Below, piece by piece: positions 7,246 through 64,000 of a stretch of DNA of 64,000 nt. Position 1 is the stretch's first letter, and every line of letters begins with the position of its first letter. The position numbers and the translations under genes are program-made. Location of the stretch: positions 85,002,001 to 85,066,000 of the forward strand of contig NC_091987.1 in NCBI RefSeq assembly GCF_044704955.1. Reading direction: 5' to 3'. The notes under the pieces were generated by a model. The model was not told the DNA's origin. It ran no database searches and was given only the letters and a program-made list of their open reading frames with translations. The stretch is from Pristiophorus japonicus. Its lineage: Eukaryota.

Positions 7246-7419
7246 CTAATTATCACAGGGCAGAAAATTAGAAGATTAATGTTGTGAAGTGGAATGTAAT
7301 GTAAAGTGTTTTTCCAAAGTTTCAGAAAAGTATATGTCCAGTATTTCTGTTTGATTTTATCTTTTCCTCAGATCTCTGTCCCGCCCATCTGGACTTACAG
7401 AAAATCACCAGAATTCTCC

Positions 7420-8181
7420 CCGGGTTACACACTGTCTGATCTCACTGGGCCCCCGGGTTACACATTGTCTTATCTCACTGGGCCCCCGGGTTACACGCTG
7501 TCTGATCTCACTGGGCCCCCGGGTTACACATTGTCTTATCTCACTGGGCCCCCGGGTTACACGCTGTCTGATCTCACTGGGCCCCCGGGTTACACGCTGT
7601 CTGATCTCACTGGGCCCCCGGGTTACACGCTGTCTGATCTCACTGGGCCCCCGGGTTACACGCTGTCTGATATCACTGGGCCCCCGGGTTACACGCTGTC
7701 TGATCTCACTGGGCCCCCGTGTTACACGCTGTTTGATCTCACTGGGCCCCCGTGTTACACACTGTCTGATCTCACCGGGCCCCCGTGTTACACACTGTCT
7801 GATCTCACTGGGCCCCCGGGGTTACACACTGTCTGATCTCACCGGGCCCCCGTGTTACACACTGTCTGATCTCACTGGGCCCCCGGGGTTACACACTGCC
7901 TGATCTCACTGGGCCCCCGGGTTACACACTGTCTGATCTCACTGGGCCCCCGGGTTACACACTGTCTGATCTCACTGGGCCCCCGGGTTACACACGGTCT
8001 GATCTCACTGGGCCCCCGGGTTACACACTGTCTGATCTCACCGGGCCCCCGTGTTACACACTGTCTGATCTCACTGGGCCCCCGGGTTACACACTGTCTG
8101 ATCTCACTGGGCCCCCGGGTTACACGCTGTCTGATCTCACTGGGCCCCCGGGTTACACACTGTCTGATCTCACTGGGCCCC
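7420..8181. repeat. 33-bp minisatellite GGGCCCCCGGGTTACACACTGTCTGATCTCACT (~23 units)
   Basis: Direct periodicity; translates as (GPPGYTLSDLT)n. Confidence 0.97.
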
Positions 8182-8439
8182 AGACGAGGAGCCGAGGGGA
8201 GCGGGAGAGAGACGACGACAGGAGTCCCTCAGCTTTCGCAGGAACCGCCCGCCCGCCCCTCCCTCCCCAGTCATTCTGGGGATGTGCCTGTGTCAGTCTG
8301 TGTGCGCGTGTCCGTCTCTCTCGCCTTCACCCCCATTCCATGTCTCATCTCCCCCCTGGGACACTCTCCCTCGGCCCCCTCTCCCCCCGGGACACTCTCC
8401 CTCGGCCCCCTCTCCCCCCGGGACATTCTCCCTCGGCCC

Positions 8440-10505: not shown

Positions 10506-10830
10506 TACTATACCTGGGTGTGTGCTGTGGAGATCCGAGATGAACGTCTCCCTGCTCTTTTTTGATAGCGCTACGCGGTTACCCCACAACAGGCAGTCTG
10601 CCTGAATGGACAGCTCGTCCTTTCGCCGCTGGAATGGCTTGATTGGCTCTTGCATTTCAATGGGGATGCTGGCCCAGCTCCCATGCAGTATACAGTTTTT
10701 TTACTGGGGACAGCAGAGATTCTTGGCTGGTCCAAGTCCTAATCTGGCGGCCGTGACAGGTGATTTATCATTTTCAAACGCTTCTATGACCATGAACAAG
10801 TCTGCGGGCTGCGCCACCATCAACAAGTTT
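10506..10830 (-). mobile_element. Ty3/Gypsy pol fragment (region leading into the integrase zinc-binding domain)
   Basis: Minus-strand translation with frameshifts: SPVT..IRTWTSQ..GSWASIPIEMQEPIKPFQRRKDELSIQADCLLWGNRV..TFISDLHSTHPGIV. Confidence 0.8.
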
Positions 10831-25545: not shown

Positions 25546-25875
25546 TTTTTTCTTCAAAAATGTACTTTATTCATATAAAATTTTCACAATACATTGGAAA
25601 ATAGTTCAGTACCTTGTGGTCAGCAATTCCATACAATTTGTTTGGATGCTGACAGCAGTTCCATACGATGCACTAGCGTGCATTTCATTTCAAGGTACAG
25701 TTTAGTACAATCCGTAAATCACGTTACATGTAGTACTGTGCAAATAAGGGTATTACATGGAGCAGATAATAACAGGTTTACATTACATTCCAGGATACAT
25801 TTCAATACCAATCACAAATCACGTTACATGTAGCACTATGCAGATGAAAGCAGCACACGGAACAGATGAGAATAT
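25546..25875 (-). mobile_element. Polyadenylated 3' end fragment, probably L1/Tx1-type
   Basis: Minus strand AATAAAGTACATTTTTGAAGAAAAAAAA; AT-rich body. Confidence 0.45.
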
Positions 25876-26435
25876 GTCCTCTCGCAGGTCGAGATGGCCT
25901 GTGATGTCCCAGGACCCACGCTGCTCTTTTATCCTCCCGACCTGTGGTGGTGACCTCTCACAGGTCGGGGTGGGCCACGATGTCCCAGGACCCACGCTGC
26001 TCTTTTATCCTCCCGACCTGTGGTGGTGACCGCTCACAGGTCAGGGTGGGCCACGATGTCCCAGGACCCACGCTGCTCTTTTATCCTCCCGACCTGCGGT
26101 GGTGACCTCTCACAGGTCAGGGTGGGCCACGATGTCCCAGGACCCACGCTGCTCTTTTATCCTCCCGACCTGCGGTGGTGTCCTCTCACAGGTCGGGGTG
26201 GGCCACGATGTCCCAGGACCCACGCTGCTCTTTTATCCTCCCGACCTGCGGTGGTGTCCTCTCGCAGGTCGGGGTGGCACACGATGTCCCAGGACCCAGG
26301 CTGCTCTTTTATCCTCCCGACCTGCGGTGGTGACCTCTCACAGGTCGGGGTGGCACACGATGTCCCAGGACCCACGCTGCTCTTTTATCCTCCCGACCTG
26401 CGGTGGTGACCTCTCACATGTCGGGGTGGCCCGCG
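25876..26435. repeat. 76-bp hairpin-containing minisatellite (~7 units)
   Basis: Period 76 (25903, 25979, 26055...); each unit has the inverted repeat CCCGACCTG...CAGGTCGGG. Confidence 0.93.
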
Positions 26436-26554
26436 ATGAATGAGTGCCCCGGGAATAAGTTGCCCTGATATTGACGCTCAGATTGTAATTATTTCTGTGG
26501 TGCCCAACTTTAATATTCTCCTGAAAGTCCCACTGCAATCCAGTTCCAGTTCCA

Positions 26555-29190: not shown

Positions 29191-29580
29191 CTACATGACG
29201 TCACAGAGACGGCATTGCCAGGTTACTGATGTCACACAGCTCGCGTTGCTGGGGTTTTGATGTCACACACTCATTATTGCCGGGTTGTTGACGTCACTGG
29301 CGCTGAGCGAGCGGCGGCGCGAATTCGAATCGCAGCCACGTGACCCGGAGCGAGCCCGCCTGGGACTGTGGGAGCGGGCGGGGTAAGTGGCAGATACAGG
29401 GTCACGATTGGTGGGTGGACTGTCAATCAGGTCAATCAGCCAATTGCAGGGGCGGACAACGCCTCCCTGAGCGCGCTGTGAGGCGGCACTGTGCATGTCC
29501 AGGAACCCCGGAGGTCGGCCGTTGGTGAAGGTAAACAAGATGGCGGAAAGTGAGCGGAGCTGAGCGGCACCGGGCGGGAG
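29190..29580. promoter_or_regulatory. CpG-island bidirectional promoter (right arm)
   Basis: TGACGTCA at ~29196 and ~29289 (two other sites read TGATGTCA); CCAAT boxes; CAAGATGGCGG YY1 motif at ~29536; candidate donors AAG|GTAAAC and AA|GTGAGC. Confidence 0.72.
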
Positions 29581-29751
29581 AGGGGACCGAGGGAGAGTGT
29601 CCCGGGGGGAGAGGGGAAGAGAGACACGGACACCTCCCCAGAATGACTGGGGAGAGAGTAGTGGGGGAGGTTACTGGGAAAGCTGAGGGACTTATGTAAC
29701 CGTTCCCTAACACCCCTCCTCTCCCTGTACCTTCCGGCCCCCGGGTCCCGG

Positions 29752-31098
29752 AGAGATCAGACAGTGTGTAACCCGGGGGCCCAGTGAGATCAGACAGTGT
29801 GTAACCCGGGGGCCCAGTGAGATCAGACAGTGTGTAACCCGGGGGCCCAGTGAGATCAGACAGTGTGTAACCCGGGGGCCCAGTGAGATCAGACAGTGTG
29901 TAACCCGGGGGCCCAGTGAGATCAGACAGTGTGTAACCCGGGGGCCCAGTGAGATCAGACAGTGTGTAACCCGGGGACCCAGTGAGATCAGACAGTGTGT
30001 AACCCGGGGGCCCAGTGAGATCAGACAGTGTGTAACCCGGGGGCCCAGTGAGATCAGACAGTGTGTAACCCGGGGGCCCAGTGAGATCAGACAGTGTGTA
30101 ACCCGGGGGCCCAGTGAGATCAGACAGTGTGTAACCCGGGGGCCCAGTGAGATCAGACAGTGTGTAACCCGGGGGCCCAGTGAGATCAGACAGTGTGTAA
30201 CCCGGGGGCCCAGTGAGATCAGACAGTGTGTAACCCGGGGGCCCAGTGAGATCAGACAGTGTGTAACCCGGGGGCCCAGTGAGATCAGACAGTGTGTAAC
30301 CCGGAGGCCCAGTGAGATCAGACAGTGTGTAACCCGGGGGCCCAGTGAGATCAGACAGTGTGTAACCCGGGGGCCCAGTGAGATCAGACAGTGTGTAACC
30401 CGGGAGCCCAGTGAGATCAGACAGTGTGTAACCCGGGGGCCCAGTGAGATCAGACAGTGTGTAACCCGGGGGCCCAGTGAGACAGTGAGATCAGACAGTG
30501 TGTAACCCGGAGGCCCAGTGAGATCAGACAGTGTGTAACCCGGGGGCCCAGTGAGATCAGACAGTGTGTAACCCGGGGGCCCAGTGAGATCAGACAGTGT
30601 GTAACCCGGGGGCCCAGTGAGATCAGACAGTGTGTAACCCGGGGGCCCAGTGAGATCAGACAGTGTGTAACCCGGAGGCCCAGTGAGATCAGACAGCGTG
30701 TAACCCGGGGGCCCAGTGAGATCAGACAGTGTGTAACCCGGGGGCCCAGTGAGATCAGACAGCGTGTAACCCGGGGGCCCAGTGAGATCAGACAGCGTGT
30801 AACCCGGGGGCCCAGTGAGATCAGACAGCGTGTAACCTGGGGGCCCAGTGAGATCAGACACTGTGTAACCTGGGGGCCAGTGAGATCAGACACTGTAACC
30901 CGGGGGCCAGTGAGATCAGACACTGTGTAACCTGGGGGCCAGTGAGATCAGACAGTGTGTAACCCGGGGGCCAGTGAGATCAGACACTGTGTAACCCGGG
31001 GACCCAGTGAGATCAGACACTGTAACCCGGGGGCCCAGTGAGATCAGACAGTGTGTAACCCGGGGGCCCAGTGAGATCAGACAGTGTGTAACCCGGGG
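29752..31098. repeat. 33-bp minisatellite (~41 units, very homogeneous)
   Basis: Reverse complement of the 7420-8181 unit. Confidence 0.97.
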
Positions 31099-35043: not shown

Positions 35044-37790
35044 GAGATTTACCCTGTATCTAACCCGTGCTGTACCTGCCCTGGGATTGTTTGATGGGAT
35101 AATGTAGGCGGAGATTTAATATGTATCAAACCTGTGCTAACCTAGCAAGTTGTGAAGAGGACGCCAATAATCTACAAAGGGATATAGATAGGCTAAGTGA
35201 GTGGGCAAAACTTTGGCAGATGGAGTATAGTGTGGGAAAATGTGAACTTATCCACTTTGGTAGGAGAAATAAAAAAGCAAATTATTATTTAAATGGGGAG
35301 AGAATACAAAATGTCATGTACAGTGGGATCTGGGGATCCTTGTACATGAAACAAAAATTTAGCATGTAGTTACTGCAATTAATTAGGAAGGCAAAAGGAA
35401 TTCTGGCCTTTATTGCAAGGGGGATGGAGTATAAAAGTAGGGAAGTCCTGCTGCAACTGTATATAGCATTCGTAAGACCACTACGTACAGTTTTGGTCTC
35501 CTTATTTCAGGAAGGATATACTTGCACTGGAGGCAGTTCACAGAAGGTTCACGAGGTTGATTACTGAGCAGGTTGGGCCTATACTCCTTGGGGTTTAGAA
35601 GACTTAGAGGTGATCTCATTGAAACATATAAGATTTTGAGGGGACTTGACAGGATAAATGCACAGAGCATGTTTCCCTTCGTGGGGGAATCTAGAACTAG
35701 GGGGCATAGTTCCAGGATAAGGGGTCGCTCATTTAAAACGGAAATGAGGAGGAATTTCTCTCGGAGGGACGTGAATGTTTGGAATTCTCTACCTCAGAGA
35801 GCTGTGGTGGCTGGGTCATTGAATGTATTTAAAGTGGAGATAATCAGATTTTTGAAAGATAAGGGAGTCAAGGATTATGGGGAGCCGGCGGGGAAGTGGA
35901 GTTGAGGCTTGGATCTGATCAGCCATGATCTTATTGAATGGCGGAGCAGGCTCGAGGGGCCAAATGGCCTACTCCTGCTCTTATTTCTTATGTTCCATAC
36001 CTGCCCTATCAGTGTTTGATGGGACAGTGTAGAGGGAGCTTTACTTTATATCTAATCCATGCTGTACCTGCCCTGGGAGTATTGGATGAGACAGTGTCGA
36101 GGGAGCTTTACTCTCTGCCTAACCCATGCTGTACCTGCCCTGGGAGTGTCTGATGGGACAATATTGAGGGAGGTTTACTCTATCTAACCCGTGCTGTACC
36201 TGCCCTGCAAGTGTTTGATTGGACAGTGTAGATGGAGCTTTACTTGGTTTCTGACCCGTGCTGTACCTGTTCTGGGAGTGTTTAATGGGCAGTGTCAAAG
36301 GAACTACATTTTGTATCTGACCTGTGCTATTCCTGCCCTGGGAATTTTAGATGGGACACTGTAGAGGGAGCTTTACTCTGCATCCAATTTTGCTGTACCT
36401 GCCCTGGGAGTGTTTGATGGGATAATGTAGACGGAGATTTACTGTGTATCTAACCTGTGCTAACCGAGCAAGTTGTGAGGAGGATGTAAAGAATCGACAA
36501 AGGAATATAGATAGGTTCAGTGAGTGGGCAAAATTTTGGCAGATAGAGTATAGTGTGGGAAAATGTGAGATTATCCACCTTGGTACGAGAAATAAAAAAG
36601 CAAATTATTATTTAAATGGGGGGAGAATACAAAATGCGGTGGTACAGTGGGATCTGGGGATCCTTGTACATGAAACAAAAATTTAGCATGCAGTTACTGC
36701 AATTAATCTGGAAGGCAAATGGAATGGTGGCCTTTATTGCAAGGGGGATGGAGTATAAAAGTAGGGAAATCCTGCTACAACTGTACATGGCGTTGGTAAG
36801 ACCACATCTGGAGTACTGCGTACAATTTTGGTCCCCTTATTACAGGAAGGGTATACTTGCACTGGAGGCAGTTCAGAGAAAGTTCCCGAGGTTGTTTCCT
36901 GAGATGAAGGGATTTTCATAATGAGAAAGGTTGAGCAGATTAGGCCTGTACTCACTGGAGTTTAGAAGACTTAGAGGTGATCTTATTGAAACGTATAAGA
37001 TTCTGAGGGGGCTTGACAGGGTAGATACAGAGAGGATGTTTCCCCTCATGGGGGACTCTCGAACTAGGGGGCATAGTTTCAGAATAAGGGGTTGCTGATT
37101 TAAAAGGGAAATGAGGAGGAATTTCTTCTCTGAGGGTTGTGAATCTCTGGAATTCTCTACCTCAGAGAGCTGTGGGGGCTGGGTCATTGAATGTATTTAA
37201 GGTGGAGATAGACAGATTTTTGAACGATAAAGGAGTCAAGGATTATGGGGAGTGGGCGGGGTAGTGGAGTTGAGGCCTGGATCCGATCAGCCATGATCTT
37301 ATTGAATGGCGAAGCAGGCTCGAGGGGCTAAATGGTCTACTCCTGTTCCTATTATGTTCCATGCCTGCCCTGGGAGTATTTGATGGGACAGTGCAAAGGG
37401 AGGATTGCTCTGTATCTAACCCGTGCTGTACCTGCCTTGGGAGTGTTTGATGTGACAGTGTTAAGGGAGGATTACTCTCTATCTAACCCATGCTGTACCT
37501 GTCCCGGGAGTTTTTGACAGGACAGTGTACAGGGAGCGTTATGCTGTATCTAACCCGTGCTGTACCTGCCCTGGGAGTGTTTGATGGGACAGTGTAGAGG
37601 GAGATTTGCTCTGTATCTAACCCGTGCTGCACCTGCCCTGGGGGTCTCTGATGGGACAGTGTAGGCTGAGGTTTACTCTGTATCTAATCCGTGCTGCACC
37701 TGCCCTGCGGGTCTCTGATAGTACAGTATAGGTGGAGGTTTATTCTATCTAGTCCGTGCTGCACCTGCCCTGGGAGTGTTTCGTTCGACA
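35044..37790 (+). repeat. Two composite units of 67-bp satellite plus embedded ~850-bp 5'-truncated CR1 (CR1 at ~35140-35995 and ~36460-37358)
   Basis: Same junction ACCTGTGCTAAC..AGCAAGTTGTGA and same exit TATGTTC.AT.CCTGCCC in both units. Confidence 0.9.
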
Positions 37791-37799
37791 GTTTACAGA

Positions 37800-40700
37800 A
37801 GAACAGAAGAAATAGGAGCAGGAGTAGGCCATACGGCCCCTCGAGCCTGCTCCGCCATTCAATAAGATCATGGACTCAGCTCCACTTCCCTGTCTGCTCC
37901 CCATAACCCCTTATCCCCTTATCGTTTAAGAAACTGTCTATCTCTGTCTTAAATTTATTCAATGTCCCAACTTCCACGTCTTTCTGAGGCAGCGAATTCC
38001 ACAGATTTAGAACCCTGTGAGAGAAGAAATTTCTCATCATCTCTGTTTTAAATGGGCGGCCCCTTATTCTAAGATCATGCCCTCTAGTTCTCGTCTTCCC
38101 CCATCAGTAGAAACATCCTCTCTGCATCCACCTTGTCGAGCCCCCTCATAATCTTATATGTTTCGATAAGATCGCCTCTCATTCTTCTGAACTCCAGTGA
38201 GTAGAGGCCCAACCTAAGTCAACCCTCTCATCCCCGGAATCAACCGAGTGAACTTTCTCTGAACTGCCTCCAAAGCAAGTATATCCTTTCGTGAATATGG
38301 AAACCAAAACTGCACACACTATTCCAGGTGTGGCCTCACCAAAACCTTGTATAGCTGGAGCAAGACTTCCCTGCTTTTATACTCCAACCCCTTTGCAATA
38401 AAGGCCAGAGATACCATTCGCCTTCCTGATCACTTGCTGTATCTGCATACTATCCTTTTGTGTTACACGCACAAGTACCCCCAGGTCCTGCTGTACTGTG
38501 GCATTTTGCAATCTTTCTCCATTTAAATAATAACTTGCTCTTTGATTTTTTTCTGTCAAAGTGCATGACCTCACACTTCCAACATTCTACTCCAACTGCC
38601 AAATTTTTGCCCACTCACTGAGCCTGTCTATGTCCTTCTGCAGATTTTTTGTGTCCTGCTCACACATTGCTTTTCCACCCATCTTTGTATTGTCAGCAAA
38701 CTTGGCTACGTTACACTCAGTCCCTTCTTCCAAGTCGTTAATATAGATTGTAAATAGTTGGGGACCCAACACTGATCCCTGCGGCACCCCACTAGTTACT
38801 GGTTGCCAAACAGAGAATGAGCCATTTATCCCGACTCTCTGTTCTCTATTAGTTAGCCAATCCTCTTTTCATGCTAATATATTACCCCCAACTCCGTGAA
38901 CTTTTATCTTGTGCAGCAACCTTTTATGTAGCACGTTGTCAAATGCCTGCTGGAAGTCCAAATACACCATATCCACTGGTTCCACTTTATCCACCCTGTT
39001 CGTTACATCCTCAAAGAGCTCCAGCAAATTTGTCAAACATGACTTCCCCTTCATAAATCCATGCTGACTCTGCCTGACCGAATTTTGCTTATCCAAATGT
39101 CCTGCTACTGCTTCTTTAATAATGGACTCGGGCAACATTTTCCCAACCACAGATGTTAGACTAACTGGTCTATAGTTTCCTGTTTTTTGTCTGCCTCCTT
39201 TTTTAAATAGGGGCATTACATTTGCAGTTTTCCAATCTGCTGGGACCTCTCCAGAATCCAGGGAATTTTATAAATTACAACCAATGCATCTACAATCCCT
39301 GCCGCTACTTCTCTTAAAACCCGACGATGCAAACCATAAGGTCCAGGGGATATATCTGCCTTTAGTACCATTATCTTACTGAGTACCATCTCCTTAATGA
39401 TTGTGATTGTGTTAAGATCTCTCCTTCCCCCCCCCCCCCCACCCCCCCCCCCCCCATAGCCCCTTGACTATCCACTGTTGGAAGATTGTTAGTGTCTTCT
39501 AACGCAAATATTTGTTCAGAGTTTCTGCAATCTCCATGTTCCCCATTACTAATTCCCCGGTCTCGGTCCTCTAAAGGACCAACATTTACTTTAGCCACTC
39601 TTTTCTATTTTATAGACCTATAGAAACTCTTGCTATCTGTTTTTATATTTTGTGCTAGTTTACTTTCATAGTCTATCTTCCCTTTCTTCTTCATTTTTTT
39701 AGTTGTTCTTTGCTGACTTCTGTCCTCCCACGAGTTTTGGTCACTTTGTATGCCCTTGTTTTTAATTGGATACCGTCCTTTATTTCTTTAGTTAGCCACG
39801 GATGGCTATCTTTTCTCTTGCACCCTTTCCTCCTCACTGGAATGTATTTTTCTTGAGAGTTGTGAAATATCTCCTTAAATGTACACAGTTCATCAACCGT
39901 CCTACACTTTAATCTACTTTCTCAGTCCACTTTACCCAACTCTGCCCTCATACCTTCATAGTCTCCTTTATTTAAGATTAGTACGCTGGTTAGAGATCCA
40001 ACTTTCTCACCCTCCATCTGAATTTGAAATTCAGTCATGCTATGATCACTCATTCCGAGGGGATCCTTTACTAGAGATTGTTTATTAATCCTGTCTCATT
40101 ACACAGGATCAGATCTAAGATAGCCTGCCCCCTGGTTGGTTCTGTTACATACTGCTCAAGGAACCCGTCCCTTATGCACTCCATGAACTCCTCATCAATA
40201 TGGAGGTTAATATCACCTATGATTATTGCTGTTCCCTTTTTACAAACCCCCACTATTTCCTGGTTGATGCTCCAACCAACAGGGTTGTTACTGTTCGGGG
40301 GCCAAGAGACTATGCCCACCAGTGACTTTTTCCCCTTATTATTCCTTATCTCCACCCAAACTGTCTTAACACTATTATCATTTGAGCCAATATCGTTCCT
40401 TACTATTGCAGTGATTCCATTCTTTATCCATAGAGCTACTCCACCTCCTTTTCCTTTCTGTCTGTCCTTCCGAATTGTCAAGTACCCCTGAAAATTTAAT
40501 TCCCAGTCCTGGTCACCTTGCAACCACGTCTCTGTAATAGCTATCAGATCATACCCATTTGTCTCAATTTGTGCTGTCAACTTATCTATTTTGTTACAAT
40601 TGCTATGTGCATTTAGACAAAGTGTCTTTAAGTTTGTTGTTTTACCTTTTTTTCCTGCTTGTATCCTCTCTCCTTCAAACTCACTTTCTTTATTTTTGCT

Positions 40701-41095
40701 TTCTAATTCCAGCTTTACTCCTCTCCCTACGGAATCTATTTTTAGGTTCCCATCCCCCTGCCAAGCTAGTTTAAACCCTCCCCAACAGCACGAGCAAACC
40801 CACCCGCAAGGATATTGGTCCCTGCTATGTTGAGGTGCAACCCGTCCGGCTTGTACAGGTCCCACCTCCCCCAGAAGCGGTCCCAGTGCCTCAGGAAGCT
40901 AAAACCCTCCCACCTGCACCATCTCTCCAGCCATCTGCTCGATCCTCCTATTTCTGTACTCACTACCTTTTGAGGTCCTGCTTTGTAATCTCTCTCCTAG
41001 CTCCCTAAACTCTGCCTGCAGGACCTCATCCCTCTTCCTACCCATGTCACTGGTACCGATGTGGACCACGAACTCTGGCTGTTCAACCTCTGCCC
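37800..41095 (-). mobile_element. Long CR1 (ORF1 esterase end, endonuclease, RT, tail) inserted in the satellite array
   Basis: ORF1 RWDLYKPDGLHLN; EN IAITETWL; RT motifs; tail at ~37800. Confidence 0.93.
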
Positions 41096-41099
41096 CCAG

Positions 41100-43330
41100 A
41101 GTGCAGAGAGAGCTTTACTCTCTACATAACCCGTGCTGCACCTGCCTTGTGCGTGATTGATGGAACACTTCTGAGGGAACTTTGCTCTGTATCTAACCCA
41201 TGCTCTACCTGCCCTGTGAGCTTTGATGGGTTGGTGTAGGGGAATCTTTCCTCTATATCTAACCCATACTCTACCTGCCCTTGTTGTGTCTGATGGGACA
41301 GTGTAGAGAGAGGTTTACTCTGTATCTAATCCATGCTGTACCTGTCCTGGGAGTGTTTGATGGATGGTGTAGAGGGAGGTTTACTCTGTATCTAACATAA
41401 GCTGTACCTGCTCTTGGAATATTTGATGGGGCAATGTAGACGGAGCTTTACTCTGTTTCTGACCCGTGCTTTACCTGCTCTGGGAGGTTTTGATGGGACA
41501 GTGCAGAGGGAGATTTATTCTGCATCTAATTTTGCTGTACCTGCCCTGCGAGTGTTTGATGCGGCAGTATAGAGGGAGCTTTACTCTATATCTGGCCCGT
41601 GCTATACCTGCCCTGGGAGTTTTGGATGCGACAGTGGAGAGAGAGCTGTACTCTGTATCTAACCTGTGTTGTACCTGCTGTAGCAGTGTTTGAGGGGACA
41701 GTAAGAGGGAGCTTTAGTCGGTACCTAACCCATGCTGTACCTGCCCTGAGAGTATTTGATGGGACAATGTAGAGGGAGCTTTACTTTCTATCTAACCCGT
41801 GTTGTACCTGCTCTGCGAGCGTTTGATGGATAATGTAGACGGAGACTTACTCTGTATCCAACCTGTGCTAACTTAGCAAGTTGTGAAGAGGACGCAAAGA
41901 ATCTACAAAGGGATATAGAGAGGGCAAAACTTTAGCAGATGGAGTATAATGTGGGAAGATGTGTGGTTATCCACTTTGGTAGGAAAAATAAAACAGCAAA
42001 TTATTATTTAAATGGGGAGAGATTACAAAATGCAACAGTACAGAGGGATCTGGGGGTCCTACATTAAACACAAAAAGTTAACATGCAGTTACAGCAATTA
42101 ATTAGGAACGCAAATGGAATGTTGTCCTTTATTGCAAGGGGGATGGAGTATAAAAGTAAGAAAGTGCTTCTGCAACTGTACAGGGCGTTGGTGAGACTAC
42201 ACCTGGAGAACTGCATACAGTTTGGTCTCCTTATTTAAGGAGGGGTATACTTGCATTGGAAGCAGTTCAGAGAAGGTTCCTGAGGTTGATTACTGAGATG
42301 AAGGGGTTGTCATAAGAAGGAAGGTAAAGCAGGTGGGGCCTATACTCATTGGAGTTTAGAAGACTTAGAGGTGATCTTATTGAAACGTATAAGATTCTGA
42401 GGGGGCTTGACAGGGTAGATGCAGAGAGGATGTTTCTCCTCGTGGGGAATCTAGAACGAGGGGGTATAGTTTCAGAATAAGGGGTCGCTCATTTAAAACT
42501 GAAATGAGGAGGAATTTTTTATCTGAGGGACGTGAATCTTTGGGATTCTCTACCTCAGAGAGCTGTGGAGGCTGGGTCATTGAATATATTTCAAGTGGGG
42601 ATAGACAGATTTTTGAAAGATAAGGGAGTCGAGAATTATGGGGAGCGGGCAGGGAAGTGGAGTTGAGGCCTGGATCAGATCAGGCATGATCTTATTGAAT
42701 GGCGGAGCAGGCTTGAGGGGCCAAATGGCCGACTCCTGCTCCGTTTCTTATGTTCTATACCTACCCTTTGAATGTTTGATGGGACAGTGTAAAGGGAGCT
42801 TTCCTCCATATTTAATCCAGGCTGTACCTGCCCTGGGAGTGTTTGATGGAACAGTGTAGAAGGAGATTTACTCTATCTAACCAGTACTGTACCTGTCCTG
42901 GGACTGTCTGATGGGACAGTATAGAGGGAGGTTTATGCTTTCTAATCCGTGTTGTACCTGCCCTGGTGGGATAGTGTACACAGGGCTTTACTCTGTATCT
43001 AATCCATGCTGTACCTGCTCTGGGAGTGTTTGATGGGACAGTGTAGAAGGAGCCTTGCTCTTATCTAGCATATGCTATGCCTGCCCTGGCATTGTTTGAT
43101 GGGACAGTGTACAGGGAGCTTTACTCTGTATCTAACCCGTGCTGTACCTCCCCTGGGAGTGTTTGATGGGACAGCGTACAGGGAGCTTTACTCTGTATCT
43201 AACCCGTACTGTACCTCCCCTGGGAGTGTTTGATGGGACAGTATCGAGGGAGCTTTACTCTGTATCTATCCCGTGCTGTGCGGCCCCTTGAAGTATTTGC
43301 TGGGACAATGAAGTGGGACCATTACTGTGT
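41100..43330 (+). repeat. 67-bp satellite array with a third composite CR1 copy (~41870-42755)
   Basis: 67-bp periodicity; same CR1 junction as at 35140 and 36460. Confidence 0.9.
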
Positions 43331-43334
43331 ATTA

Positions 43335-46300
43335 AGACCCAAGGTTGCAAGCCATCAGGTCCAGGGGACTTTTCCATCTTTAGTCCCATTATTTTATTGA
43401 GCCTTTTTTTTGTGATAGTGATTGCTTTAAGTTCCTCCCTCGCTTTCGCCCCTTGATTATCTATTATTGGGATGTTTTTAGTGTCTTCTACCGTAAAGAC
43501 TGATAAAATTATTTGTTCAAAGTCTCTACCATTTCCCTGTTCCCCATTATTAATTCCCCAGTCTCATCCTCTAAAGGACCAACGTTTAATTTAGCCACCC
43601 TATCCTTATTAGAAGCTCATACTATCTTTTTTATATTACTTGCTAGTTTACTCTCATAATCTATCTTCCCTCTCTATTATTTCTTTAGTCATCATTTGCT
43701 GTTTTTTTAAAAATTTGCCAATGCTCCGGCCTCCCACTGATCTTGGCCACTTTGTATGACATTGTTTTCAAATTGATACCATTCTTTACTTCCTTCGTTA
43801 GCCACGGAATGTTCTCCCTTCGCTTAAAGTTTTTCCTTCTCACTGAAATATATTTTTGTTGAGTTATGAAATATCTCCTTTATTGTCTGTCACTGCTTCT
43901 CAACTGTCTTACACTTTAATCTATCTTCCCAGTCGACTTAAGCCAACTTTTTTTTTATACGTTCACGAGATGTGGGCTTCGCTGACAAGGCTAGTATTTA
44001 TTGCCCATCCCTAATTGCCCTTGAGAAGATGGTGGTAAGCCACCTTCATGAACTGCTGCAGTCCGTGTGGTGATGGTAGTGCCACAGTGCTGTTAGGGAG
44101 GGAGTTCCAGGAATTTGACCGCGCGACGATGAAGGAATGGCGATATGCTTTCAAGTCAGGATGGTGTGTGACTTGGAGGGGAACGTGGAGGTGGTGGTGT
44201 TCCCATGCGCTTGCTGCCCTTGTCCTTCTCGATGTTAGAGGTCGCGGGTTTGGGAGGTGCTGCCGAAGAAGCCTTGGCGAGTTGCTGCAGTGCATCATGT
44301 AGATAGTACACAATGCAGCCACGGTACGCCGGTGGTGGAGGGAGTGGGTGTTTAAGGTGGTGGATGGGGTGCCAATCGAGCGGGCTGCTTTGTCCTGGAT
44401 GGTGTCGAGCTTCTTAAGTGTTGTTGGAGCTTCACTCATCCAGGCAAGTGGAGAGTATTCCATCACACTCCTGGCTTGTGTCTTGTAGATGATGGAAAGG
44501 CTTTGGGGAGTCAGGAGATGACACACTTGCCACAGAATACCCAGCCTCTGACCTGCTCTTGTTGCCACAGTATTTATGTGGCTGGTCCAGTTAAGTTTCT
44601 GGTCAATGGTGACCCCCAGGATGTTGATGGTAGGGGATTTGGCGATGGTAATGCCATTGAATGTTAAGGGGCAGTGGTTAGACTCTCACTTGTTGAAGAT
44701 AGTCATTGTCAGGCACTCGTGTGGCACGAATGTTACTTGTCACTTATCAGCCCAAGTCTGAATGTTGTCCAGGTCTTGCTGCAAGCGGGCATGGACTGCT
44801 CCATTATCTGAGGAGTTTCGAATGGAATTGAATACTGTGCAGTCATCAGCGAACATCCCCACTTCTGCTTTCATACCTTTGTAGTTGCATTTATTTAGAA
44901 TCAGGGCACTGGTTTGAGGTCTGACTTTCTCACCCTCCAACTGAATTTGAAATTCAACCATGTTATGATCACTTTTTCCTAGAGGATCCTTTACTATGAG
45001 ATAATTTATTAATCTTGTCTCATTACACAGTACCAGATCTAAGATAGCCTGCTCCCTGATTGGTTTCTTCAACTTACTCTTCAAGGAAACCATCCCGGAT
45101 ACACTCTTATAAACTCTTCCTCAAGTCTACCTTGGCCAACTTGATTTGTCTAATCAATATGAAGATTAAAGTCGCCCATGATTATTACCGTACCTTTCTT
45201 ACAAGCCTCCATTATTTCTTGATCTATACTCCGTCCAACAGTGTCGCTACTGTTAGGGGGCCTATGGACTACGCCCACCAGTGACTTCTTCCCCTTATTA
45301 TTTCTTATCTCCACTCAAACTGATTCTACATCTTGATCTTCTGAGCCAATATCATTTCTCACTACTACACTGATCTCATCCTTTATTAACAGAACTACCT
45401 CACCTTTTCCTTTCTGTCTATCCTTCTGAATTGTTAAATACCCCTGAATATTCAGTTCCCAGCCTTGGTCACCTTGCAACCACATTTCTGTAATGGCTAT
45501 CAGATCATACCCATTTATATCTATTTCTGCCGTCAACTCATCTATCTTGTTACGAATGTTATGTGCATTCAGATAAAGAGCTTTTAATTTTGTCTTTTTA
45601 AAATTTTTTCCTGCTTTAACCCTACTTTCTGTTATACTCTTATTTTATACATTCTGTCCCTTCCTGTCACAGTCTGGTTATCATTTCCCCCACCGCTACC
45701 CTGCTCTATTGCCTTCTCCTTGCTCTTTGCCTTTTTAAATTTCCGCTCACCTGAACCCTTTCCACCCCCAGTACTGGTGCCAGTGCCCCATGAACCGAAA
45801 CCCATTTCTCCCACACCAGACTTTGTGCCACATGTCCATCTCTCTGATCTTATTTACGCTGTGCAAATTTGCTCGTGGCTCGGGTAGTAATCCAGAGATT
45901 ATTGCCTTTGTGGTTCTGCTTTTTAATTTAGCCCCTAGCTGCTCAAAATCCCTCAGCAGAACCTCTTTCTTTGTTCTGTCTATGTCATTGGTCCCTACAT
46001 GAACCACGACAACTGGATCTTCCCCATCCCACTCCACGTTCCTCTTCAGCCCGGAGGAGATGTCCTTAACCTTGGCACCGGACAGGCAACACAGCCTTCG
46101 GGACTCTCGCTCTCGGCTGCAGAGAACAGTATCTATCCCCCTAACTGTACTCTTTCCTACCACTACAACATTTATTTTTACTCCCCCCATTGAATGGCCT
46201 CCTGTACCATGGCGCTGTGGTCAGTTTGCTCACCCTCCCTGCAGTCCCCGCCCTCGTCCAAACAGGGAGCAAGATTCTCGTGCCTGTTGGACAATTTTAA

Positions 46301-55850: not shown

Positions 55851-56462
55851 TATTTATTGCCCATCCATAATTGCCCTTGAGAAGATGGTGGGGAGCCACC
55901 TTCTTGAACCGCTGCAGTCCGTGTGGTGATGGTACTCCCACAGTACTGTTAGGAAGGGAGTTCCAGGATTTTGACTCAGCGGCAATGAAGGAACGGCGAT
56001 ATGCTTCCAAATCAGGATGGTGTGTGACTTGGAGGGGAACATGGAGGTGGTGGTGTTCCCATGTGCCTGCAGACCTTGTCCTTCAAGGTGGTAGAGGTCG
56101 TGGGTTTAGGATGTGCTGACGAAGAAGCCTTGGCGTGTTGCTGCAGTACATCTTGTACATGGTAAACACTACACCACGGTACGTCGATGATGGAGGGAGT
56201 GAATGTTTAAGGTGTTCGATGGAGTGCCAATAAAGTGGCCTGCTTTGTCCTGGATGGCATCGAGCTTCTTGTGTTGTCGCAGTTGCACTCATCCAGGCAA
56301 GTGGAGAGTATTCCATCACACTCCTGACTTGTGCCTTGTAGATGGTGGAAAGGCTTTGAGGAGTCAGGAGGTGAGACAGTGGCCGTAGAATACCCAGTCT
56401 CTGACCTGCTCTTGTTGCCACAGTATTTATGTGGCTGGTCCAGTTAAGTTTCTGGTCAATGG
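55851..56462 (-). mobile_element. Second LINE family 3' fragment (tail at 53107-53155), host of the LTR element
   Basis: Homologous to 43950-44612; breaks at TCAATGG where the LTR starts. Confidence 0.88.
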
Positions 56463-58459
56463 TGTAAGGGGTGGTTTGCAGGGGGTCAGCTTTCCCTTCT
56501 GACCTTATATGAGCGGTTCCGAATCGCTCCCACACCCTTGGTTCTAGACACTGGAATTATGAAGGGACGGTGACAGACTTGGACAGACAATCGGTTTCAA
56601 GGTCGGAAGCAGGTATGGCCTTATTGTGTTTAAAAAGAAGTAAAAGGCACACCTTTAATAACACACACAGACCAATACACACTGAAGGGTACAACACATT
56701 GAATAAATTGTCCAATTACAGTCTGGGGAAAAGAATACAGCTTAAACTCTAAATGGGGTAAAGAGGCGAATGCAGATACAGTTACAAAGTTATCCCAGCC
56801 TCCCCCCTCTGCTCCCAATTCCCCATACTAACTAAGTTATAGCTCTCAGGGTTCAGGGGCCATGCTCACCAATCCCCTTTTAGACAGTTGCCAGTGAATC
56901 GCGGTTTCGGGGATCGCTGCACTTGGCCTTCTAGGCGAGCCGTACCCCGGTCGGAGGAGAGGACTTCAGACTGCATAGTCTTTGGTTGGGGTGCTAAGTT
57001 GCGTTTTGGATGTATGGGGTAAATACCCACTTTCTTTGGTTAGGAATAGTTTTAGTTAGTCCTTTTTGGTAATTTCTCACCCGTTGGTCGTTCCGAAGTA
57101 GATTGTAGAGTGGAAATAAATGTCGATTCTTTGGTTTTTGCTGAGTTGGTTTCGGTTGGTCGTTTTGCTGGTTGTGGTGGCCCGGGTTGTCAATTTGGTT
57201 GCTGACAACCTTCCATTTCGTGGGCCTCATGCTCAGTCAGTTCTTGATGAGTTCTAGTAGTTTCCTTCACTGCTCCATTTCTTCACTCCCCAGCTCCAGC
57301 TGCTTGTGTCTGTGTCTGTGTTCTAGTCTGTGTGCTGCTCCTTGCTGGTCTTTTCTTGTAAAAAAACTGGGGGATAGATATATTCCAAAAAAAAGGTTCC
57401 GTTATCTCCCATCAAATCTCTTGGGCTCTGTTTAAACTGTACTGTCCACTGATTTTCAAATGTCTCCTTTGTCAGCAGTAACTTGATTAGGGTGTGAGAA
57501 TGTGCTATCACTGGTTTTGCATTGTTTTAGAATTGTCCAGTTTCTTGACCATGATTTCCATTGTGCTTGATTGGGTAATTCGATTATCTCTTAGCGGGTG
57601 AATAGTTCCCCCAGACAGTCTGGGGCCTTTAATACACGAATTTGCTTCAGACGTTGGCTCCACCTCCTGTATTTGGTAACTCTTTTTCGCAGCCAAAATG
57701 TTGTAGAATCTTAAAATTGATATGCTCCTTCCCATAGATGTTTAGGGGATCTCAAGCTTCTGTCATTTAGGTCCATTTTGAATTCCCTTTCCTATGAGTC
57801 CAAACACTGGGGGGTGGGGGGGGGGTCTCCATGAATGCATCCCCTTTTACCCCCGTAGCTTCGTCTGCCCCTTTAAACTCATTTTAAAAGTCCAGAAAGG
57901 GATTCTTCTCCCCTGTAGAGGAAAGGTACCTGGAATCTTTGCGAGATATTGGTAAATTCTACATTCCCCCCGTGATACTATATCACTTATGGTATCATTC
58001 TTCGAGGTGAGCAAAGTTCCTGACTCCCAAGAGATAACCTTCCCCATAAATTAGCTAAACTAATACCCAAAATGCATTACACTTATGCAACATCACCATA
58101 GATGTACACTTTTCCCTTTACAGGTACAAACTTTTTACATTTATACCCTCCCAGCTTGGAGGGGGTTCAATCACTACAATTGCATTTCAGCACAGTTACA
58201 TTTCATTTCAGTTACATTATATTCACCAGCATATAGGCAACGTACAACCACATTACAGAAGGAAAAAAAACCTAGATTAAAATTAAACAACATCAATTGG
58301 TCTCCTGGTAATGTCTGGATCCTGCCCTTGAGAACTGCTCTCAGGCTGGCTGACACACAAGACAAACTCAAAATAATCACCTAAACATTACTGCAATATT
58401 ACCCTCAATTCTAAACTAAACCTTAAAATATCCTTAAACTAAAATTAGAGCTATGTACA
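56463..58459 (-). mobile_element. 3' LTR (~2.0 kb) of the retrovirus-like element
   Basis: Minus strand begins TGTACA right after the purine-rich GGAGACGGGTGGCGGT and ends ...CCTTACA at the host LINE junction; the 5' LTR lies outside the window so the boundary is unconfirmed. Confidence 0.7.
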
Positions 58460-58486
58460 ACCGCCACCCGTCTCCAGGTGGACTGG

Positions 58487-61400
58487 TTAGTCCCTGTCAG
58501 GCCCATGCCTTGTGCGGCCTGATAGCCGCCTGGATGCTAGGGTTTCCCTGCAGCCGGTGAGCTGGAGACCCTTGTGTCTGGGACAGCTCGTTGCTAGTGC
58601 TCCTGTGAGACCCTCACCGCTGGAGGCGGCTGGCTGGTGGTCCCTACTCTGAGCGGCCTCTGTACTTCTGACCTTCGGCCTTTCCTGTCGGGCTGCCCTT
58701 CTCCTAGGGTAGAATCGCTGAGGCTCAGATGCCGGTGACCACGGTATCTTTGGCCGTGGTGTACGGAGGGTCCTTCTCAGGGCTTGGGTTACTGGGGGTG
58801 CGTCCAAATCCCAAACGATGGGTGGGATAGCCCCTCCAGTACTGCAATTCACCGCCCCTATAGGCACGGTTTCTGAGCCTGCCTCATTCCCTGTGGGCCC
58901 TCCACCGTCGGTGGCGGCCAACGGAGGGTCCCTGTCCTGAGGACGGTTCACCCCTCCCGGCTGCCCTCTGTGCTTGGCTGACCCTGGGTTGTACAGCTTG
59001 CACTGGTTGATGTGGAACCACTTAGTACGGCGGGGCAGCTTTATGGCATAGACCATCGGGCATTATATATGGCCCCATATATAATGCTTCAAAAACCCCG
59101 ACCCGAGCATAGTTCCTCACCATGACCTGGTCCCCTATCTCCCATTCGTGGTGTTTGCTGGGTTCTAGCAGCAATCGGTTCCCCTGATGCTGTCTGCCCA
59201 TGTTACTAGCAGCCTGCCAGTGAATCTGTTTGAGGTGTTCAAACAGGTTCCTGACAAACCGGTCCCGGTTCACCTCTCTGAGCTGACCTTCTGTGAGCAC
59301 CGGGGCTAGGACATGGGTGGGGGTCCGCATGATCCGGCCAGTCATGAGCTCGTATGGGGAATACCCGGTGCTCTTTGGCTAGCTCCGATCCCCATTAGGA
59401 CCAATGGTAAGACCTCCACCCACTTTTGGGGTGAGTCTCCCGTTTCCTTCCGCAGCCTTTCTTTAATGGTGCGGTTTAAACGCTCCACAATACCCGATGA
59501 CTGTGGATTGTGGGCAACGTGCCATTTCCCCTCAATGCCGAGCATCTTAAGGGTTGCCTGCATTACCTGCCCGGTGAAATGGCTCCCCTGGTCCGACTCC
59601 ACATACTGTGGGAGTCCCCACCGGGAGAACACTTCCCTCACTAGAATCTTAGCTGTCCCTAGTGCGGTGGCTGTTCGGCAGGGGAAGGCTTCAACCCATT
59701 TTGAGAACACGTCCACCAGGACAAGGCAGTATTTGTAGCCTCCCTGGGCGGTGGGTAGGGGCCCGATGTAGTCAATTTGGATTGACTGCCATGGTCCCTC
59801 TACCCTCCTGACATGTCCTAGGGACACCTTCCTTTTCTGGGGGTCAGGGTTGTTCGCAGCACACACCAGGCAGTTCGCACAGAACTCGCGGACGTCCTCC
59901 CTGAGTCCTGGCCACCATCCTGCCTGTTCCACCCGTTGCCAGGTGGTCTCAGGCCCGGGGTGTCCCGCTCCTGGACCCTCATGGGCCAGTTTTAGGAATT
60001 CCCTCTGGTGCTGCTGTGGCACGACCCATTGTCCCTCTTTAAACAGCATGCCTTCCTTAACGGTAATGGCTGCTGTGCCGTACGGACCTTCTACTCTCTC
60101 TCCTCTAGCTAGCACATTCAAGACAGCTTTCAGGACTGGGTCCTGTAGCTGAACTGTATTTAAGTCCGGGGCCAAAGCTGTCCCTGTACTCTCTGCTGCC
60201 CTGTTCTTATTCTTGACTGCTGCTATGCGGCCGGTGTCATAGGGGTCCCAGAACTTTCCCATGCGGGCACCTTCTTTGGCCAGTTTGTCAGCCTGTTGGT
60301 TTCCCTCTGCACGGGGTTCGGTTTTTGAATGGGCCTTCACCTTATGTATGTAGACCTTTCCTTCTTCCTCCACCGCTGTCATGATTTTCTCCAGCAGGGG
60401 CTTGATTGCCAGGGGTCTCCCGTCAGCGGACGTGTATCCGCGACGGGACCAGATAGCCAGGTACTCCGTACATGAATTGCAGGTGAACATACTGTCCGAG
60501 CAAATCGTGTACAGGGTAGGGAATTCCTCGGGGTGGGTCACCACGTACATTACGGCGGACAGTTCAGCATGCTGGGCGCTCATGGTGCTGGGGAGCTTGA
60601 TTGCCAGGGCAATACCTGCCCTTGGGTCATAGACACCGCACCCAGTGAGTCGCTCGCCAGCAGATACCGTGCTGGACCCGTCCACGTAGATGTCCCGGCC
60701 TGTAGGGTGTAACCCCGCCCGAAGGCCAATGTTTACCTCCCATACTCTTTCTATGGAGCACCTGTGGGCTTTCCCTGGATAGATTAGGTTGGCTGCGAGC
60801 CTTGGCTCGCGGGGGCCTTCTACGCTGAGGTCCATCTGGGAGAGGAGCAGGGTCCAGCGAGCAATGCGGGCACTGCTCACCGTCCCGTCCTTAATCCTCC
60901 CATCTAGGAGCATCTGAGTAGGTGTGTGGTGGGTTAGGAGTGTTAGAGGAGACCCTCCCGTGAAGATCAAGGATCTTTTCACTGCCCAATGTGTGGCTAG
61001 GAGGTGTCTCTCGCAGTTGGAGTACCCCTTCTCCACATCTGTGAGGATCCTGGAGGAGTAAACCACCGGTCTCAGCTGGCCGTGCCGCTCTTGAAGCAGC
61101 ACTGAGCTCAAACTGTCCCCGCTGGCTGCCACCTCCAGGAAAAACTCCTTTCCTACATCTATCGCTCCCAAGGCTGGCGCGGTCTGCAAGTCCTTCTTGA
61201 GCTGATTAAATGCTGCCTCGCAAACCTCATCCCAGTCCCACTCTACACTCTTGTGTAGGAGCCTGAGCAGAGGGGCTGCGGTGGCTGCATAATCCTCAAT
61301 GAAGTCTCTGCAGTCCCCGGTGAGCCCTAGAAAGGATCTTACCCCTGTCACTGTGTTGGGGGCTGGTAACTCCTATACTGCCTCCCTTCTAGCCTTGTCT

Positions 61401-62644
61401 ATGGCCCTTTCCCCAGCGCGCACAGTCAGACCCAGGAATTTGACTTCCTTCTGGCTGATCTGTGCCTTCTTGGGGTTTACTTTAAACCCTTCTTCTTTTA
61501 GCAGCTCCAGCAGCTCAGCCAGCAGTGGGCCATGCTCCTCCCCCTGATCGGTGAACAGGAGCAGGTCATCCACATACTGCACCAACTGCTGGGGTTTGCT
61601 AAAGCCCTTTAAACAGTTCGCCATGCATTGGTGAAAAATGCTGGGACTATTGTGGAAGCCTTGGGGAAGACAGTTCCACGTGTATTGTTGGCCCTTAAAG
61701 GTAAAGGCGAACTTGTACTGGTCCTCCCGTTTTAAAGGAATGGACCAGAACCCATTTGAAATGTCCAGCACTGTGAAAGTGGTCGCAGATGCTGGAATAC
61801 TCCCTATGAGATACGCTATGGCTGCTACAGTGGGTGCACAGGCAGGGATATTCTTATTTAGTACTCGATAGTCCACGGTGGCCCTCCATGAGTTGTCCGG
61901 TTTCTTAACTGGCCAAAGTGGAGAGTTTACATGGGTTGCTATCGGTCTTAACAACCCTTGCTCTACCAGTGATCCCAGCGCCGTTGTCAGGTCTGCCTCT
62001 GTCTCCCTGAAGAAGTTATATTGCTTTTGTGGTCGGGTCATGGGGTCCCCTACTATACTAACTTCCACCCCCGTTACCCTACCACAGTCATGTTTGTGGG
62101 TGGCAAATGCTGCAAGGTGTGCCCGTACATATGCCTGGTACTCCACTGGGGTGTTACTGACCAGTAATTCCAAGTCGTAACCCTCCTTTGGCTTCACGGT
62201 ACACAATGTTCCCTTGGCCCCTTTTTCTGGGATCACCGCCACCTCACCTTCCCTGTCAGTCACTATGGCTCCCCATAGACAGTGGTTCCTGTGATCCACT
62301 AGGATCTGGTGGCCAATGATAAAATCAGCTCCCAGGATCCCTTTTCCCTTTTGCTCCCATTTCATCAGGACACACTTCCATTTGGTTTTGAGTGTCCCTA
62401 ACTGAATGGTGAGCGGGATGGAAAACTAACCAGTTTGCTCATTACCTGTGAACCCCACTAGACTGTACGGGACCCTGTTCGATAGAGGTGAGGTAGCTGG
62501 GTTATCTTCATATACAAGGGTGCTGGAAGCACCAGTATCTAGCAGGTAGGTCCCTTTCACTTTCTCCACCTTCATCGTAACGCACGGTCTCTTCCAGGCA
62601 TCGTACTCTAGGGAACACAGATACACAGGCTGCACTGGCCTTAG
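58487..62644 (-). pseudogene. pol: pol of a retrovirus-like LTR element: PR-RT-tether-RNase H-IN; two in-frame stops (62426, 61373) and frameshifts (~59375, ~59060)
   Basis: LLDTGAS; LPQGFHNSP, YVDD; IYVDGS..SAQHAEL..SDS..KVKAH..GNQQAD; HHCC, QIDYIGP, SDQGSHF, VERLN; GPY motif. Confidence 0.93.
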
Positions 62645-64000
62645 TCATGCATCTGGGTGGGTTGGAGCAGAGGGTTTTACCGTACCGGCTATTGGACCGG
62701 TTGCGATAGCTACTGCTCCCTGTCCGTTTATGAGTGTCTGTAGGGCGGCTACGAGTGTCTCATATGTGTCGGGTGTTCCTGCCCCGGCCTTACGGGCTGG
62801 GGCTGGAGTGGCCTTTCCCTTAGTCTCTTTCCAGGGGTTCCTACAATCCTTCCTCCAGTGCCCACTTTTCCCACACCCAAAACACTCGCCCCCTTTGTGG
62901 GGAGGGTTTCCACCTTCCTGATGCCACTCTCTCTTTCCTTGGCTGGGTTTAATCTCATGGACCCTCCCTTTAGAGGAGGGCTCCTCTGTCCCTCTACTGT
63001 TCCGGTAAGCCAGTGTCAACTGCCTGACCACTGTCTCCTCGGTAGTTCTGGGATCTCTTGGATCGAACCAGACCTCGGCTTTTGCCTTTACTCCAGGTAG
63101 GCTGTTTGCCACCAGGCTGCGGAGCCAGTGAGCCAGCTCGTTAGGGTTCAGGTGGGCCCGGTCAAGAACCTCACTACAGGCCCTTTCGTAGACCGGCCAC
63201 AACCTGTCGGCGAAAGCCTGTGGAGTCTCCCCATCGAGCTGCACTGTCTTCTCCACTCGGGAGAAAGGACTCCCGTCGTTCATACCCATGGCCTCTAGAA
63301 CCTCCTCCTTAACCGTAGCGTACGTGTTTTGCCCCTTTCTGCTGTCTGCAGAGAGGGAATGGCACAGCTTGGTGTCTAGTGAGAAGAGCAACAGCTTAGC
63401 CTGCTCCGAATCATCGCACCCGTTAATATCCCCTGTTTGTTCCACTTCCAGGAAGTGTACCGAGGGATCCCCCTGTTGGGTGAGCTTACTTAGGTGGCCT
63501 ATCATAGCCCTCAGTTTTTGGGTGTCGTGGGGGACTACGAAGTTGCTTTCTAGGGGTCCTGCTGCCCCATTGGCATCAGGCGGGCCAAACTTCTGCTGCC
63601 GGACCTGGTTCCGGCCCTCCTTGTATTGGCTCGCCCTCTTCCCCCTGCTGCCAAGCCGAGTTAAAACTCGGGGCTGCCGGTGTTGGTAGTTTGCAATCCT
63701 TGCCTGCCCCGCACTCTGGCTGACACCCCTGCTGCCCCGGGCCATTCCTGGGAGCTGCAGGCGGTGACAGAGGGGTTTCTCCTTGCCCAACCAGGTGTTC
63801 CTGGGCTAAACCCGGGTTTATCAGACACACCATGCCTTTAGCCCGGGATAGAGCAAGGTTCAAGCTTTGGACCTGCTGCTGCCAGGGGCCGTGGTCTCCT
63901 GCTTCAAATTCCCTGGTACTGGCTACCTGAAAGGCTACCTGAATGTCTCTCACCCTCTCCCCGTACTCTTTAACTTGCTTGGCGAGGCAGGAATTCTCTT
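62645..64000 (-). pseudogene. gag: gag (5' end outside window) with one CCHC zinc knuckle; frameshift near 63590
   Basis: CFGCGKSGHWRKDC; QLDGETPQAFADRL resembling the major homology region; directly upstream of protease. Confidence 0.88.

Follow-up and report, generated by a model that had tools for sequence, protein, structure and literature searches.

A class III endogenous retrovirus of the shark Pristiophorus japonicus that lost env in one deletion and likely multiplied as a germ-line retrotransposon

The window analyzed here is a 64,000-nucleotide stretch of the genome of the shark Pristiophorus japonicus (assembly GCF_044704955.1, contig NC_091987.1, positions 85,002,001 to 85,066,000). 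From position 56463 to the end of the window, on the minus strand, lies an endogenous retrovirus (ERV) that extends ~2 kb beyond position 64000. Coordinates above 64000 are given as extended coordinates, that is, with the window numbering continued into the next stretch of the contig. In full, the provirus measures 9.5 kb; it has long terminal repeats (LTRs) of 1.5 kb and a primer site for tRNA-Arg, and its target duplication is 4 bp. Its parts are arranged in the order LTR, primer site, gag, TGA codon, protease, reverse transcriptase (RT), tether, RNase H, integrase, polypurine tract, and LTR. As set out below, it is very probably a defective class III shark ERV in which env was lost in one 2.3-kb deletion, after which the env-less form likely multiplied as a germ-line retrotransposon. 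The features are as follows.

56459..56462, minus strand: 3' copy of the target site duplication, 4 bp, CCAT (from the sequence)
56463..57963, minus strand: 3' LTR, 1501 nt, TGT...ACA (from the match to the 5' LTR)
57964..57971, minus strand: polypurine tract, directly ahead of the 3' LTR (from the sequence; the junction is the same in siblings)
57972..58320, minus strand: non-coding, homologous to DNA downstream of env in env-bearing relatives
58320..58321, minus strand: env deletion junction; ~2.3 kb of env-bearing members missing
58321..58486, minus strand: non-coding, homologous to the pol-env interval of env-bearing relatives
58487..60022, minus strand: integrase, with zinc-binding domain, DDE core (~59794-59504), and long low-complexity C-terminal extension
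60266..60691, minus strand: second RNase H, catalytic acidic residues complete (PF00075, E=4.1e-21)
60836..61159, minus strand: tether, a degenerate Ty3/gypsy-type RNase H (Pfam RT_RNaseH, E=6.8e-19)
61421..61909, minus strand: reverse transcriptase core, YVDD
62200..62644, minus strand: aspartic protease with LLDTGAS, separated from gag by a single TGA and in the same frame; 3' boundary approximate
62645..64000, minus strand: gag, with its start near extended coordinate 64391, just past the tRNA-Arg primer site
Extended coordinates 65974-64466, minus strand: 5' LTR, 96.2% identical to 57963-56463

The 5' LTR, the primer site, and the target duplication were recovered beyond position 64000, where a first-pass annotation of this DNA, made from the sequence alone, had proposed to look for them. 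The primer site is complementary over 18 nt to the mature 3' end of tRNA-Arg(CCG), and the gene for this tRNA is present in the genome. The element is inserted into a fragment of a long interspersed nuclear element (LINE) reverse transcriptase, which resumes past the 5' LTR; sibling copies are likewise flanked by 4-bp duplications. The match to the 5' LTR and the polypurine tract ruled out an LTR start at ~58460. The integrase frame had been annotated as ending 27 bp before the LTR, but the last pol frame stop is at 58487 and the LTR starts 523 nt further on, at 57963, behind the polypurine tract. The LTR pair has a Kimura two-parameter distance of 0.018, equivalent to ~4 million years at a mammalian rate or ~42 million years at a tenfold slower shark rate, neither rate having been measured for this host; the slower rate is an assumption made in PMC4422223 (excerpts). 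A second copy with the same insertion and flanks (G000:C2256) is 99.1% identical; it is either the other allele or a duplicate in the assembly, and haplotig duplicates may therefore be among the copies counted genome-wide. In another copy (G000:C1:82.18 Mb), the primer site departs from that of the family at several positions and resembles what we take to be the site for a different tRNA-Arg isoacceptor.

The gag frame ends in TGA and pol continues in the same frame, as in the siblings. Gag has a CCHC knuckle at ~62887-62840 (Pfam E=0.003, below the cut-off) and likely a coiled-coil N terminus, and RT contains the motifs PQKQY, LDISNGFWSIP, LPQGFHNSP, and YVDD. The tether carries LEVAAS at 61138, CERHLLA at 61015, and LLTHH at 60940. 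When it was aligned to Ty3/gypsy RNase H sequences with TDAS, ERECLA/YLECLA, and TDH, all three acidic positions were found to be replaced. Of 29 copies, at least 28 have the four acidic residues of the second RNase H intact; for integrase, D, D, and E are retained in at least 27 of 28. The first-pass annotation was thus accurate on the dead tether, the complete second RNase H, the RT motifs, and the Gag knuckle. It was accurate also on the absence of env from the window copy, in which tblastn with three related Env proteins gave no match at E≤1. No accessory open reading frames were seen. The window copy is dead, with two stops, one in frame after the RT core (61373-61375) and one in the protease (62426-62428), and three frameshifts, one in gag (~63580-63800) and two in integrase (near 59360 and 59040).

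Was this lineage always without env, or was env lost? Both landmarks were present in 27 of the 29 nearest siblings, and the distance from the integrase stop to the LTR was 511-566 nt in 26 of these; in the remaining one it was 1112 nt, with a non-coding insert. Genome searches with a Pol matching snakehead retrovirus (SnRV) and with Env relatives revealed three sister families with RTs 70-91% identical to that of the window, each of which has an env frame following pol. In a DNA tree of the 1.6-kb RNase H-integrase region, with the root placed on the most divergent family, the env-less family was sister to one env-bearing family (96/95) and the other families fell outside. By this comparison, env is ancestral in the window clade.

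The short interval between integrase and the LTR retains DNA from both sides of the missing gene. The 523-nt gap of the window matched the DNA before and after env but not env itself (6/6 loci of the sister family env2; 0/100 shuffles reached the score). Positions 58321..58486 scored 73 against the pol-env interval, with a shuffle maximum of 37. The match of the 3' flank to the sister family env1 was weak (2/300 shuffles); a clear match was obtained only with env2, which is the closer family. On contig C1, 62 matches to the family integrase included 23 without the junction word nearby; 20 of these were fetched, and four carried env, with pol 92-96% identical to the window. The distance from the integrase stop to the LTR was 2844-2895 nt in three of these env carriers compared to 450-561 nt in 10 short copies. 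Window homology of the env carriers breaks between 58321 and 58320, with ~2.3 kb missing from the window. Among 49 copies whose junction state was scored, 38 had the same joined junction, four had the env side, one had other sequence, and six were without an anchor. These data indicate that the loss of env was secondary and occurred by one shared 2.3-kb deletion. Of the origins offered by the first-pass annotation, the loss of env from an ERV that then turned into an intracellular transposon agrees with the env carriers in the same family and the mapped deletion junction.

Genome-wide, exact matches numbered 570 for the joined junction (20-mer), 43 for the env side (18-mer), and 601 for the family integrase word. 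The two junction words are unequal in length, and the copies with env seem somewhat older (terminal branches of 0.027-0.034 versus mostly 0.01-0.03; LTR pair divergence of 4.6% in one env-bearing pair versus 1.2-4.1%). A fair reading is therefore that env-less copies outnumber env-bearing ones within the family by roughly ten to one. The possibility that most siblings would carry env, which had been named beforehand as speaking against an env-less lineage, is contradicted by this env-less majority.

Several other sequences were considered in the search for env. A 2.5-kb insertion in the C1 copy with the divergent primer site (G000:C1:82.18 Mb) was rejected as an env remnant because it looks like a nested gag-protease LTR element, as was a 0.58-kb insertion in C3545, which is non-coding. 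The genome's top 30 loci for TLV_coat were rejected as relatives, being one epsilon-like family unrelated to the window family. That epsilon-like family is high-copy, and one of its loci (L055) carries a piece of the window family's LTR. The youngest-looking of the env-bearing sister families (contigs C9, C6, C4, and C3) has LTR pairs of 99.4-99.8% identity and RTs that match the window at 86-87%; its primer site is the same, and an integrase 20-mer from it has 725 exact matches. Two further, older env-bearing sister families have Envs 60-70% identical to that of the first, and an env 20-mer from one of them has 1261 exact matches.

How did the env-less form spread to several hundred sites? 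Intracellular copying is the likely route. Going by retroviral biology, the LTR would drive transcription, and Pol would be made by read-through of the gag stop, as implied by the in-frame position of pol behind the gag TGA. Reverse transcription would be primed by tRNA-Arg, the second RNase H would remove the RNA, with the tether serving a structural role, and integration would create the 4-bp duplication. The sequences further suggest that gag-pol stayed under purifying selection after the deletion, and hence that copies may have been made with the element's own Gag-Pol. The ratio of nonsynonymous to synonymous polymorphism (pN/pS) was 0.77 for private variants, 0.39 for variants in two copies, and 0.31 for variants in three or more (432 codons, 29 copies). 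This pattern agrees with copies being made by the element's own Pol and decaying neutrally afterwards. ERVs are known to amplify by retrotransposition in cis (excerpts of PMC10435555), and those without env reportedly proliferate with greater ease (a paraphrase in part of 10.1101/2021.11.23.469661).

Some observations weigh against this reading. The selection signal comes from few shared variants (45 nonsynonymous, 39 synonymous), some of which may be recurrent CpG changes, and Env provided in trans by the sister families is compatible with the data. The family tree is a polytomy in which env-bearing and env-less copies are not cleanly apart. The sister env-bearing families are equally or more numerous (725 and 1261 versus 601 exact matches). 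By this crude count, env loss gave no genome-wide advantage, which argues against a simple superspreader story. The link to SnRV is moderate, at 91/92 in the LG tree of RTs described below, with no resolution in the mixture-model tree or in a smaller tree.

An alternative that we consider improbable is that the env-less form was a helper-dependent passenger, which used the Env of a sister family to re-infect the germ line or the Gag-Pol of a sister family to be copied. The genome does contain env-bearing members of the family together with three or more close families that carry env, with a common primer site where examined; complementation in trans is also a recognized route (PMC10435555, in part). 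However, gag-pol is full length, its catalytic residues are invariant, and pN/pS is lowered among shared variants, all of which favors use in cis, although borrowing of Env alone would leave the selection signal in gag-pol intact.

We then asked where the element belongs among retroviruses. A database search with RT returned one 73%-identical protein first, followed by frog and coelacanth proteins at ~45%. The window RT was 38-42% identical to loki-like RTs compared to 47% for SnRV and 47-56% for the frog and coelacanth relatives. For the trees, protein P0010 was taken as SnRV and P0066 as Loki-Lca by their match to rows of the RT alignment in PMC9040795 (consulted in part), and the feline foamy virus and WEHV-1 references bear their database names. 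The trees contain no class II and no Odin sequences, and loki is represented by three loki-like rows. In the LG tree (76 rows, hand-picked from 158 usable RT regions), the window fell among canonical retroviruses, with the loki-like rows (100/91) and foamy viruses (100/94) excluded, and grouped with SnRV and frog and coelacanth rows (91/92). In the mixture-model tree (37 rows), the exclusion of loki was supported at 100/94 and that of foamy viruses less well, at 90/87. The window RT was never within the gamma/epsilon or foamy groups in the RT trees. Since the SnRV grouping appears in the LG tree only, "class III grade" is a firmer description than "SnRV clade." Taken together, these sequences indicate that the element is a class III, likely SnRV-like, shark ERV.

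The other domains and the layout of the element were examined alongside RT. The RNase H tree gave no resolution at depth. Integrase formed a loose group with loki-like integrases and frog and coelacanth rows (86/78; also 92/84), in a set without CGIN1, and the integrase of the window clade did not group with that of SnRV; another integrase tree gave no resolution of its position. The element has the features of canonical Retroviridae, namely, the RT position, a tether plus an intact RNase H, LTRs, a tRNA primer site, a polypurine tract, and a target duplication. An env between pol and the 3' LTR exists in the lineage (four copies of the same family and three sister families), though not in the window copy. 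Membership in Ty3/gypsy fails, as the RT lies within retroviruses and a second RNase H with an intact active site follows the tether.

The first-pass annotation had favored a lineage near the retrotransposon-retrovirus boundary. That the lineage is primitively env-less, like Odin elements, or is a shark lokiretrovirus is highly improbable: a tether and second RNase H without env do form the Odin layout (PMC9040795, excerpts), the integrase does group loosely with loki-like integrases (86/78 and 92/84), and a forced window-loki RT clade in the mixture tree, costing 26.8 log-likelihood units, was borderline in the approximately unbiased test (p=0.046), but the RT is less identical to loki-like RTs than to those of SnRV, frog, and coelacanth, loki is excluded with starred support in the RT trees, and the env in the same family and the mapped deletion refute a primitively env-less state. 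The loki/Odin signature xPFGYxNSP was not seen in the window RT in a by-eye comparison with part of the PMC9040795 alignment. With its RT nested in a described group of the same architecture, within canonical retroviruses and apart from the three loki-like sequences, and with env ancestral, the element is not a transposon-retrovirus missing link. SnRV-like ERVs have been reported in the elephant shark (PMC4422223) and in fish, coelacanth, and amphibians (PMC4977317, PMC6001957, and PMC12193657), and lokiretroviruses were found in 0/3 chondrichthyan genomes screened (PMC7947760), all according to excerpts of these papers. A term search of PMC9447858 found nothing on a link to NYNRIN. The open-licence literature on elasmobranch ERVs yielded no description of the window family.

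SnRV uses a tRNA-Arg primer and gag-pol read-through. The closest known elements are those of the SnRV clade, clade Huo, and class III ERVs, among them the elephant-shark CmiERV lineage I (PMC4422223, PMC6001957, and PMC4977317, in part). Like SnRV, the window element has a canonical retroviral RT (47% identity) and a tether plus RNase H, and cartilaginous-fish members of the group have already been reported. Unlike SnRV, its nearest relatives are frog and coelacanth ERVs, its integrase stands apart, its subfamily is env-less, and it has no accessory reading frames that we could see. As in ERV-L and MuERV-L, env was lost, gag-pol was kept, and env-less copies outnumber env-bearing ones. Magiorkinis reportedly described env-less ERVs in 2012 as "genomic superspreaders." Unlike ERV-L, the window element is a lineage separate from ERV-L-like sequences in the RT tree, its env-bearing parent form persists, and its env-bearing sisters are no less abundant; its target duplication is 4 bp, compared to 5 bp in ERV-L and XtERV-S (PMC8278194).

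The element shares with lokiretroviruses a tether plus RNase H and likely a coiled-coil Gag N terminus, as in Bik-1 (PMC7947760, excerpts). An F-type Env and a related integrase may be further likenesses and are leads only, whereas the RT lies outside the loki clade. With Odin it shares, in the window copy, a gag-pol-only layout and a dual RNase H (part of PMC9040795). Odin elements, however, come from sea anemones, are sister to loki, and have no known env, whereas the window lineage had env and deleted it. Foamy viruses provide the best solved-structure sequence matches of the window RT and integrase. They have a Gag without CCHC and express Pol apart from Gag, whereas the window Gag has CCHC, its pol is in frame with gag, and the RT trees separate the two. 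Because the element is placed outside foamy viruses, its CCHC Gag is no puzzle.

What kind of envelope was lost? By eye, the Env of the sister family has a furin site, a hydrophobic peptide, a heptad region, a cysteine-rich region, and a transmembrane helix. Its start gave a weak Ig_3 match (E=0.0018, below the cut-off), and its named relatives are from a sawshark and a skate. A protein-language-model search with this Env placed Baculo_F (0.94) and Fusion_gly (0.93) at the top, with a recognition score under the tool's threshold, and returned Baculo_F (0.92) and Fusion_gly (0.91) for a 30%-identical Env homologue from another family; by the tool's own count, these matches are one weak source. 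A Pfam scan of 12 Env sequences found no fusion family, and the relatives' Env had no meaningful sequence or profile match in PDB. AlphaFold2 gave low-confidence models of the relatives' Env (mean predicted local distance difference test scores of 34 and 32).

Excerpts of the literature describe the lokiretrovirus Env as F-like (PMC7947760) and the foamy Env as structurally F-like (PMC11468914), and one source, seen in part, assigns the Env of canonical retroviruses to class I, with loki set apart as F-like (10.1101/2023.10.26.564294). For SnRV-like or class III ERVs of fish, the open-licence literature, which is incomplete, yielded no report of an F-type Env. We tentatively raise the possibility, itself somewhat doubtful, of a shark and skate class III lineage that combines a canonical RT with an F-type (paramyxovirus/baculovirus-like) Env bearing an Ig-like N-terminal domain and with a loki-type integrase. 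If this were true, then, given the F-like Env of foamy viruses and lokiretroviruses, the F-type would be the ancestral state of the Retroviridae envelope and would have persisted deep within the orthoretroviral side. The genome would then also preserve the states before and after env loss, with the event mapped.

Two further observations concern these envelopes. In the predicted protein of a frog relative (P0002, Pyxicephalus adspersus), integrase continues at residues ~1195-1291 into a hydrophobic segment and a weakly matching Ig domain (Ig_3 E=0.012), which suggests that the Ig-like Env N terminus may be wider in the clade. A second class III-like family has a 1181-codon pol, two CCHC knuckles, and an RT 45-48% identical to the window. 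Its Env is 30% identical to that of the sister family (E=2e-65) and its integrase groups with gamma/epsilon integrases (98/96), so a module exchange is possible.

The window family offers a natural case of a retrovirus turned intracellular retroelement, with the parent form, a single junction, and a roughly tenfold expansion in one genome, from a group of vertebrates with few described ERVs. Amplification of env-less ERVs was already known, and the family adds a new shark example; it does not speak to how retroviruses arose in the way that had been hoped at first. The genome also holds thousands of env-bearing class III proviruses, whose envelope has no Pfam match to TLV_coat, so that screens built on gamma-type Env would miss such envelopes. 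If Env is F-type, it would bear on where the retroviral Env came from, and this by-product may matter more than the window element. The possible F-type Env is the part worth specialist attention.

The rest of the window is filled by several tandem arrays (periods of 33, 31, 76, and 67 nt) and repeated LINE-like fragments, at 7286-8313, 10786-13428, 25799-26514, 29574-30878, and 35915-43399.

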